From sequence record PQ356294.1: DNA of 64,000 nucleotides; one strand, written 5' to 3'. This stretch comes from Escherichia phage Ec_YwIITB1. This document shows positions 9,571-10,415 of the stretch, one piece after another. Below the pieces are notes generated by a model. That model was not told where the DNA came from, made no database searches, and saw only the letters and a program-made list of their open reading frames with translations. Within the stretch, counting starts at the first letter, position 1. Every line of letters begins with the position of its first letter. Both the position numbers and the translations under genes were made by a program.

Positions 9571-9600
9571 CTAAAAAGCCCCAACCTTTCGGTCGGGGCT
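9571..9600 (-). terminator. intrinsic terminator hairpin downstream of the tRNA region
   Basis: agccccaacc-tttc-ggtcggggct hairpin followed on the minus strand by TTTTT; near-copy of the hairpin at 9012..9041. Confidence 0.55.
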
Positions 9601-9916
9601 AAGCCTTGCGGCAACCTTGTCGGGGTTCCACCTGCTAAGGCAAGTGTTTGTACGAAACGCCGGGATTTGAACCCGGTTATTAAGCAGTTGACGCTACTCA
9701 ATATTTTTAAAAGGCCATATCTCAACCATATCCGAACGTTCCGTCAAAAACGCTACTCGGCTTACAGCAAAAATATTTCCTCGAATCGATAATTCTGTGC
9801 GCCGTTTCAGCTGTGATGTAAGGGGACATTAACAGATCGTAAAGATTTGTTAATGCCAGTCCTTACCCAGGGAACATCAGTCCGACGACTTACCGGTAGC
9901 GACCCGGTTTCTTGTT

Positions 9917-9992
9917 TGGTCGAGGCAGTAGGGATCGAACCTACGACCTAGGACTTAGAAGGTCCTTGCTCTTCCTTCTGAGCTATGCCTCG
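9917..9992 (-). tRNA. tRNA-Arg (anticodon UCU)
   Basis: Manual cloverleaf: acceptor CGAGGCA/TGCCTCG, D stem GCTC/GAGC, anticodon loop CTTCTAA, T arm GTAGG-TTCGATC-CCTAC, encoded CCA. Confidence 0.85.
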
Positions 9993-10161
9993 AACCCATG
10001 ACTACGAGAATCACAATCTCGAGTTCTACCAACTGAACTACGGCCACATTAATACCTACTCCAACAATCAAGATGTCTTCACACGAAATTAAGAGAAGAG
10101 TGATCAGTTCAACCCCTATAATCGCGTCAAGTAGATATTAATGTGACAGTTGTCACAAATT
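9993..10161 (-). ncRNA. tRNA-like structured RNA (candidate counterpart of T4 stable RNA species 1/2)
   Basis: The 53 nt next to tRNA-Arg fold as acceptor strand GTGGCCG, D arm GTTC/GAAC, perfect anticodon arm CGAGA-TTGTGAT-TCTCG (GUG) and T-stem 5' strand, then run directly into tRNA-Arg with no T-stem 3' strand or acceptor 3' strand; hairpin tgtgaca/tgtcaca at 10141..10160. Confidence 0.4.
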
Positions 10162-10236
10162 TGGCGGACGTGATAGGATTCGAACCTATAACCAATCGCT
10201 TAACAGGCGATCGCTCTGCCATTGAGCTACACATCC
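10162..10236 (-). tRNA. tRNA-Asn (anticodon GUU)
   Basis: Manual cloverleaf: acceptor GGATGTG/CACGTCC, D arm GCTC-AATGGCA-GAGC, anticodon loop CTGTTAA, T arm ATAGG-TTCGAAT-CCTAT, encoded CCA. Confidence 0.8.
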
Positions 10237-10240
10237 AAAT

Positions 10241-10327
10241 TGGTGGGGAGTGGTGGAGTCGAACCACCCGAGTCGCAATGACAATGGATTTACAGTCCAC
10301 ACCGCTACCTCTACGGGATAACTCCCC
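10241..10327 (-). tRNA. tRNA-Tyr (anticodon GUA), class II with long variable arm
   Basis: Acceptor GGGGAGT/ACTCCCC, anticodon arm GTGGA-CTGTAAA-TCCAT, 15-nt variable arm, T arm GGTGG-TTCGACT-CCACC, encoded CCA. Confidence 0.75.
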
Positions 10328-10340
10328 TTAATTCTTAATT

Positions 10341-10415
10341 TGGTGGCCCTGGGTGGAATTGAACCACCATCTGGCGATTATGAGTCGCTTGCTTGAACCT
10401 TCCAGCTACAGGGCC
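10341..10415 (-). tRNA. tRNA with anticodon CAU (Ile by analogy to T4 tRNA-Ile; Met not excluded)
   Basis: Acceptor GGCCCTG/CAGGGCC, anticodon loop CTCATAA, T arm GGTGG-TTCAATT-CCACC, encoded CCA. Confidence 0.8.

Follow-up and report, generated by a model that had tools for sequence, protein, structure and literature searches.

The window analysed here, a stretch of 64,000 nucleotides from Escherichia phage Ec_YwIITB1 (PQ356294.1), was placed by BLAST in Tequatrovirus (Straboviridae, Tevenvirinae). The closest phage genomes were only 95-98% identical to it across 6 kb, and thus the window genome itself was absent from the phage collection. On the minus strand, ARAGORN and the Rfam tRNA model delineated a T4-type tRNA cluster in the order Gln, Leu, Gly, Pro, Ser, Thr, Met, Tyr, Asn and Arg, with the interval under study located between the last two. 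The features of this region are as follows.

9577-9600: strong intrinsic terminator, 3' of the rnaC homologue
9651..9789, minus strand: homologue of T4 rnaC (species 1 RNA), 135/139 positions identical, located before the terminator
9797..9912, minus strand: homologue of T4 rnaD (species 2 RNA), 102 identical positions over T4 rnaD 4-118, downstream of tRNA-Arg
9917..9992, minus strand: intact tRNA-Arg(UCU), from ARAGORN, the Rfam tRNA model and alignment A1
9989..9990, minus strand: deletion junction, from alignment A1; relatives have the 25 nt CTCCCATCGGTCACCCCAATTACGG between the two bases
9990..10047, minus strand: remnant of tRNA-His(GUG), nt G1-A58, from the sequence, a truncated tRNA model match and identity to the gene of relatives
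10040..10152, minus strand: structured leader RNA lying between tRNA-Asn and tRNA-His, from repeats, RNAfold, conservation, covariation and leader model R1
10142..10157, no strand assigned: inverted repeat TGTGACA-AC-TGTCACA (TGTGA-N6-TCACA), 1 match in 64 kb compared with 0.04 expected
10162..10236, minus strand: tRNA-Asn(GUU), upstream neighbour of the interval, from ARAGORN and the Rfam tRNA model

Read from 10047 to 9990 on the minus strand, the remnant is GTGGCCG TA GTTC AGTTGGTA GAAC T CGAGA TTGTGAT TCTCG TAGTC ATGGG TTCGA. What is retained comprises the acceptor 5' strand, the D and anticodon arms, the variable loop, the 5' strand of the T stem and five nucleotides at the beginning of the T loop, after which the stump continues without a gap into GGCATAGCTCAG... 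of tRNA-Arg, with 9990-9992 common to both. All of the tRNA-like elements pointed out in an earlier note on this DNA were found on the minus strand, as was their head-to-tail fusion to tRNA-Arg, whereas the numbering given there needed correction: G1 of the His piece lies at 10047 rather than 10048, which is a T at position -1, and the upstream spacer measures 114 nt (10048-10161) instead of 115. The covariance-model tRNA search that the note had put forward as a check gave a divided answer. Once tRNA-Arg was cut away at 9993, the Rfam tRNA model returned a 3'-truncated match over model positions 1-53 of 71 (36.7 bits, E = 1.2e-6), but no match over the stump was obtained when tRNA-Arg was in the searched stretch, be it the whole window or a 401-nt neighbourhood. 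Compared with the canonical tRNA (RF00005), the D arm (GTTC/GAAC) and the anticodon arm with its 7-nt loop (CGAGA-TTGTGAT-TCTCG) were present, and the 7-bp acceptor stem was missing, its 3' strand CGGTCAC lying in the 25-nt deletion. Also missing were the T arm, of which ATGGG and TTCGA were left and CCCAT was deleted, the discriminator C73 and the 3' CCA, both within the deleted 25 nt, and a full-length score at or above the gathering threshold of 29 bits. The stump cannot form a cloverleaf.

Over its entire length (58/58), the stump was identical to the 5' end of the intact tRNA-His of the relatives teqhad and 101117BS1, which scored 65.1 bits with the Rfam tRNA model, and such identity places the stump far beyond chance. 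A three-way alignment of the window, teqhad and 101117BS1 (A1) contained a single gap of 25 nt and 1-2 substituted positions over 341 nt, the flanks being 99.4-99.7% identical to genomes with an intact tRNA-His. Lost with CTCCCATCGGTCACCCCAATTACGG are His 59-76, which comprise the remaining T loop, the 3' strands of the T and acceptor stems, C73 and the encoded CCA, as well as the ATTA spacer and Arg C1-G2-G3. Phage records covering at least 80% of the 341-nt query numbered 185; their alignments extended over 366 nt and so exceeded the query by 25 nt, and most records among the matches listed annotate tRNA-His, tRNA-Arg and tRNA-Asn at this place, teqhad and 101117BS1 included. The shared order of Asn, leader, His and Arg, together with the 58-nt identity, marks the locus as orthologous to the Tequatrovirus tRNA-His(GUG) gene known from teqhad (MN895434), AR1, wV7 and vB_EcoM-101117BS1. 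The window has the same position, strand and first 58 nt but lacks nt 59-76, and so has no T-arm 3' half, acceptor 3' strand, C73 or CCA. The suggestion in the earlier note of a decayed tRNA-His is therefore borne out, with complete genes in relatives and a window short by exactly 25 nt.

The junction itself was found in the window only. When an 81-nt junction query was used, all matches listed were split into two pieces over 106 nt; a junction-spanning 45-mer had no match among the 50,697 phage records of INPHARED, and a junction 32-mer was found neither in IMG/VR nor in JGI metagenome contigs. The absence from these collections and the near-identical flanks indicate that the deletion allele is private and recent. 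Both ends of the deletion fall within an imperfect direct repeat, made up of TTCGA from the His T loop and TTACGG at the tRNA-Arg start, with no exact microhomology. An intact His followed by an Arg starting CGAGGCA, which would give 3 nt of microhomology, was not found among sequenced relatives, and the best full-length matches carry G3.

Loss of this gene has occurred elsewhere in the genus. Eleven Tequatrovirus records of the UFV-AREG1/teqskov type carry no tRNA-His at all, the leader being followed by 15 nt and then tRNA-Arg. Like the window, these phages have lost a dispensable tRNA by a small deletion and kept tRNA-Arg; unlike it, they retain essentially no His sequence and have a different Arg allele, whereas the window represents a partial loss in which a 58-nt stump is fused in register. 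The T4 RefSeq record is also without a tRNA-His, and T4 is viable without its tRNA genes. In two close Tequatroviruses, tRNA-His was the single tRNA difference (PMC13353012). Judged from these genomes, the genus Tequatrovirus can clearly do without tRNA-His. The relatives' gene resembles bacterial pre-tRNA-His, in which an encoded G-1 is paired to C73 in an 8-bp acceptor stem, in having C73 and a GUG anticodon; in contrast, position -1 was U in every phage copy examined (window 10048; L001 1393; alignments A2-A4), and G-1 is therefore not encoded. Bacterial HisRS has G-1 as one of its major determinants (PMC9976931). A putatively weak charging of the phage tRNA-His in E. coli would fit the repeated loss of the gene.

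The downstream tRNA-Arg(UCU) was left intact by the deletion. His C56-G57-A58 now serve as Arg positions 1-3 in register, and hence the acceptor stem is whole: CGAGGCA/TGCCTCG forms 7 bp, all of them Watson-Crick. The acceptor 5' strand reads CGAGGCA in the window (A3-U70) compared with CGGGGCA in relatives (G3.U70), and the full cloverleaf scored 68.1 bits with the Rfam tRNA model compared with 63.9 bits for teqhad. An Arg beginning with CGAGGCA (A3) was also found in Gelderlandvirus STP4-a, and tRNA-Arg(UCU) was present in every cluster examined. As a separate observation, the tRNA-Arg(UCU) of the ~185 relatives carries G3.U70 (L001 1474-1548), which the deletion has turned into A3-U70 in the window (9990); the G3.U70 wobble is the classic feature by which AlaRS identifies its tRNA (PMC9976931).

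The element is therefore very probably a tRNA-His(GUG) pseudogene that arose in a Tequatrovirus tRNA cluster through a single recent 25-bp deletion, a new instance of ordinary decay of a known type. The ancestral order, still found in about 185 sequenced relatives, is tRNA-Asn, the 114-nt structured leader, tRNA-His with an encoded CCA, ATTA and tRNA-Arg; the deletion took away His 59-76 together with the 4-nt spacer and Arg positions 1-3. The cluster would presumably still be transcribed as one polycistronic precursor ending at the terminator 9577-9600. In the predicted fold of the whole precursor, the Arg cloverleaf was kept and the His 5' strand paired with the leader; because Arg remains a cloverleaf within the whole upstream RNA, RNase P should release it normally, cutting at Arg +1 with U at -1 and giving a normal tRNA-Arg(UCU). 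The upstream product, consisting of the leader and 55 nt of His, would be a by-product with its GUGGCC 5' strand paired to the leader. Lacking the acceptor 3' strand, T arm, discriminator and CCA, this fragment would be neither matured nor charged, and it would probably also lack what RNase P needs at His +1. The neatness of the in-register junction may reflect survivorship, since variants that break tRNA-Arg would be selected against. Taken as a pseudogene, the stump illustrates cleanly, and in a way that can be dated, the loss of accessory tRNAs from T4-like phages in which tRNA-Arg(UCU) is kept.

Several points speak against a pseudogene, namely a junction seen in no other record, the lack of exact microhomology, the formal report of a tRNA-His by ARAGORN and the exact preservation of tRNA-Arg taken up below. 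A junction that is unique among the INPHARED, IMG/VR and JGI sequences, with flanks nearly identical to genomes carrying the intact gene, might point to a sequencing or assembly artefact, or to a deletion carried by a minority of the phages in the lysate; in either case the real phage would have an intact tRNA-His. We consider this unlikely, because assemblers and basecallers do not typically drop 25 nt cleanly from a non-repetitive sequence of balanced GC content, and because the perfectly paired tRNA-Arg looks like a product that has passed selection. In addition, the window differed from teqhad by 2 gap openings only in ~1.85 kb, which argues that the local assembly is not generally indel-prone, although this is no substitute for read evidence. 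The overlapping tRNA-His that ARAGORN annotates at 9976-10048, sharing 17 nt with tRNA-Arg, has almost no chance of being a functional gene. In its drawing the acceptor stem is mostly mismatched, and the T stem, of 4 bp, includes non-standard pairs and has no loop closure of the TPsiC type; a discriminator, a CCA and a full-length Rfam tRNA match are all lacking, and its maturation would destroy tRNA-Arg. The call is a heuristic artefact to be disregarded. Pipelines of this type will output a bogus overlapping tRNA-His, and the phage should be counted as His-less.

The exact preservation of tRNA-Arg could, on the other hand, hint at selection on the fusion itself. The stump might have been kept for a function, either as a 5' leader that aids or regulates Arg maturation or as a decoy that offers its anticodon arm to a host anticodon nuclease directed at GUN tRNAs, a link drawn from colicin E5-type enzymes. 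The D and anticodon arms are indeed intact and folded in every prediction, and three of the four GUN tRNAs, namely Tyr, Asn and His, are among those that this phage group has beyond the T4 set. Nevertheless, retention for function appears very unlikely: the allele is private and recent and hence offers no conservation that would argue for it, and intact arms are just what a days-old deletion leaves behind. The role of a tRNA-Arg processing cofactor, raised in the earlier note, found no support either, as relatives mature the same tRNA-Arg without the stump, behind a complete tRNA-His and a 4-nt spacer or without any His.

The reading of the interval as the counterpart of T4 stable RNA species 1 (rnaC), which had been supposed to precede tRNA-Arg, is refuted. 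The location of the interval in the tRNA region, and nothing more, favours this identity. The minus-strand order in the T4 RefSeq record is tRNA-Arg, rnaD, rnaC, so that these RNAs follow tRNA-Arg and do not precede it, and their own homologues were found in the window at 9797-9912 and 9651-9789. The interval, in contrast, lies upstream of tRNA-Arg and not downstream of Arg and rnaD before the terminator. Alignment of the interval to T4 rnaC gave a local score of 14 compared with a shuffled mean of 14.8, its similarity to both rnaC and rnaD did not exceed that of shuffled sequence, and the leader model R1 had no match in the 4-kb T4 tRNA region. Within the window, rnaD was less conserved than rnaC, and the rnaC 3' end contained the T-arm-like CCGGGTTCAAATCCCGG.

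The sequence upstream of the stump, regarded in the earlier note as a spacer with one hairpin, turned out to be a conserved structured RNA. Approximately 105 nt of the 114-nt spacer (10048-10161) were conserved in ~360 phage records, belonging to Tequatrovirus, Karamvirus (PG7, Pet-CM3-4, fGh-Ecl04), Jiaodavirus (Roth19, pzk-kv19, KEN37), Roskildevirus (Cronus), Gelderlandvirus (STP4-a) and one Vequintavirinae lineage (A5-4). Copies of ~105-113 nt were located at L004 398-510, L005 394-506, L007 386-500, L008 316-440, L013 329-440 and L026 591-702. The leader is built from a basal helix of ~19-24 bp (arms 10130-10153 and 10037-10060), a pair of inner hairpins and a small hairpin, and the 3' arm of the basal helix takes in His nt 1-5 or more. 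RNAfold gave a dG of -54.3 and a z of -4.3. The inner hairpins occurred in two alternative sequence types, GGGGUUGAACUGAUCAC... and GGCAGAAGUCAUGAAC.... In a MAFFT alignment of 14 sequences, RNAalifold found 31 consensus pairs, 11 of which showed compensatory changes. In a 13-sequence alignment, 95.3% of cells were paired compared with 42-50% in controls with partners slid by 1-3 columns, and 10 pairs were changed on both sides compared with 1-5 in these controls; the covariation score of the same alignment was reached by none of 500 shuffles. One pair of the small hairpin occurred as four Watson-Crick types. The structure was assigned to the tRNA-sense transcript because of its many G.U pairs and because model R1 scored 133.5 bits in sense compared with 24.2 in antisense.

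The leader carried no annotation in any phage record examined. In Rfam scans of the whole window, the 401-nt neighbourhood and the 169-nt interval, tRNA was the sole family identified. Searched against Rfam 15, the 114-nt sequence matched no family and gave noise only (tmRNA_permuted, microRNA precursors and VR-RNA, E ~1-8), and in bacterial and archaeal genomes none of the 62 pattern matches passed the leader model. Our literature search found no specific description of the leader or of a phage tRNA-His without G-1. A hammerhead-like reading of CUGAUCA...GAAG was discarded, as the motifs are structurally misplaced by eye and had no Rfam match.

Each sequence searched contained one copy of the leader, always within a phage tRNA cluster. 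It usually lies directly 5' of tRNA-His, and was found before tRNA-Arg in the His-less Tequatroviruses and before tRNA-Gln in A5-4. The 5' arm of the basal helix matches the downstream tRNA, with GUCACA/UGUGGC for His and CUCCAAA/UUUGGGG for Gln in A5-4, and in Jiaodavirus and A5-4 it shares bases with the CCA end of the preceding tRNA. Since the basal helix pairs with the 5' strand of the downstream acceptor stem, it would compete with cloverleaf formation. For a relative with an intact His, the sequestered fold was predicted at -59.8 and the cloverleaf-enforced fold at -57.2, a gap of ~2.6 kcal/mol. In the enforced cloverleaf state, the freed GUCACA is predicted to fold locally into the TGTGACA/TGTCACA hairpin, and the helix inside the leader to stop exactly at His -1. 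We tentatively suggest that the leader may be an undescribed phage-specific structured RNA that might gate or organise the maturation and processing of the next tRNA, for instance as a switch, or be excised as a stable RNA with paired ends, like rnaC/rnaD. In the window, the deletion has removed the competing His 3' strand and would fix the leader in its sequestered form. T4 rnaC/rnaD are non-coding and co-transcribed with the tRNA cluster (PMC3014915), and the leader may be an analogous co-processed RNA, although the interval shares no sequence similarity with them. Their functions are still unexplained (PMC3014915; PMC12685909). The leader is thus a covariation-supported RNA in several hundred Tevenvirinae genomes that stands beside two 50-year-old orphan T4 RNAs, and it provides a testable handle on the folding and cutting of phage polycistronic tRNA precursors.

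The tgtgaca/tgtcaca hairpin mentioned in the earlier note is present as the inverted repeat at 10142-10157. The basal helix draws its outer 5' arm from the 3' half of this repeat, and the repeat therefore constitutes an alternative local hairpin. It conforms to the CRP-cAMP site core TGTGA-N6-TCACA and was limited to the Tequatrovirus versions of the leader. In UFV-AREG1 and BCH953P2 its central 4 nt are reverse-complemented, AGTT for AACT, like a flipped hairpin loop. The repeat might form an RNA hairpin in place of the leader helix, serve as a protein-binding site, or do both. A consensus scan of the spacer for sigma-70 promoters gave none on the minus (tRNA) strand and one match on the plus strand; by eye, a TATAGG without T-7 lies 29-30 nt downstream of the palindrome centre. 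An antisense ORF of 22 codons, MSSHEIKRRVISSTPIIASSRY (10073-10141, plus strand), has its start codon in the invariant hairpin loop and is open in most genera. It was rejected as a coding sequence: it has no Shine-Dalgarno, the substitutions within it are non-synonymous, pzk-kv19 has a broken frame and UViG L026 lacks the ORF, and the G.U pairs and model score (133 vs 24 bits) fit the tRNA-sense strand only.

Several minor observations concern the rest of the cluster. The tRNA-Tyr(GUA) gene (10246-10325, minus strand) is an atypical long-arm tRNA that scored 30.2-30.3 bits with the Rfam tRNA model in the window and in relatives (L001 1116-1195, L018 213-292), slightly above the threshold of 29 bits, and some pipelines may overlook it. 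Compared with T4 (L003), this phage group has Met for Ile and the additional Tyr(GUA), Asn(GUU) and His(GUG) (window 10162-10415 and 9990-10047, minus strand). These three belong to the four GUN or queuosine-family tRNAs, and Jiaodavirus clusters also contain Asp(GUC). The gain of GUN tRNAs might speculatively reflect pressure from anticodon nucleases acting on the queuosine family. Furthermore, genes for Seg-type GIY-YIG homing endonucleases adjoin tRNA-His or tRNA-Arg in some relatives, such as fGh-Ecl04 (L016 611-877) and T4 with segB (L003 1754-2419), and breaks made by such enzymes might give rise to small deletions in the tRNA cluster.
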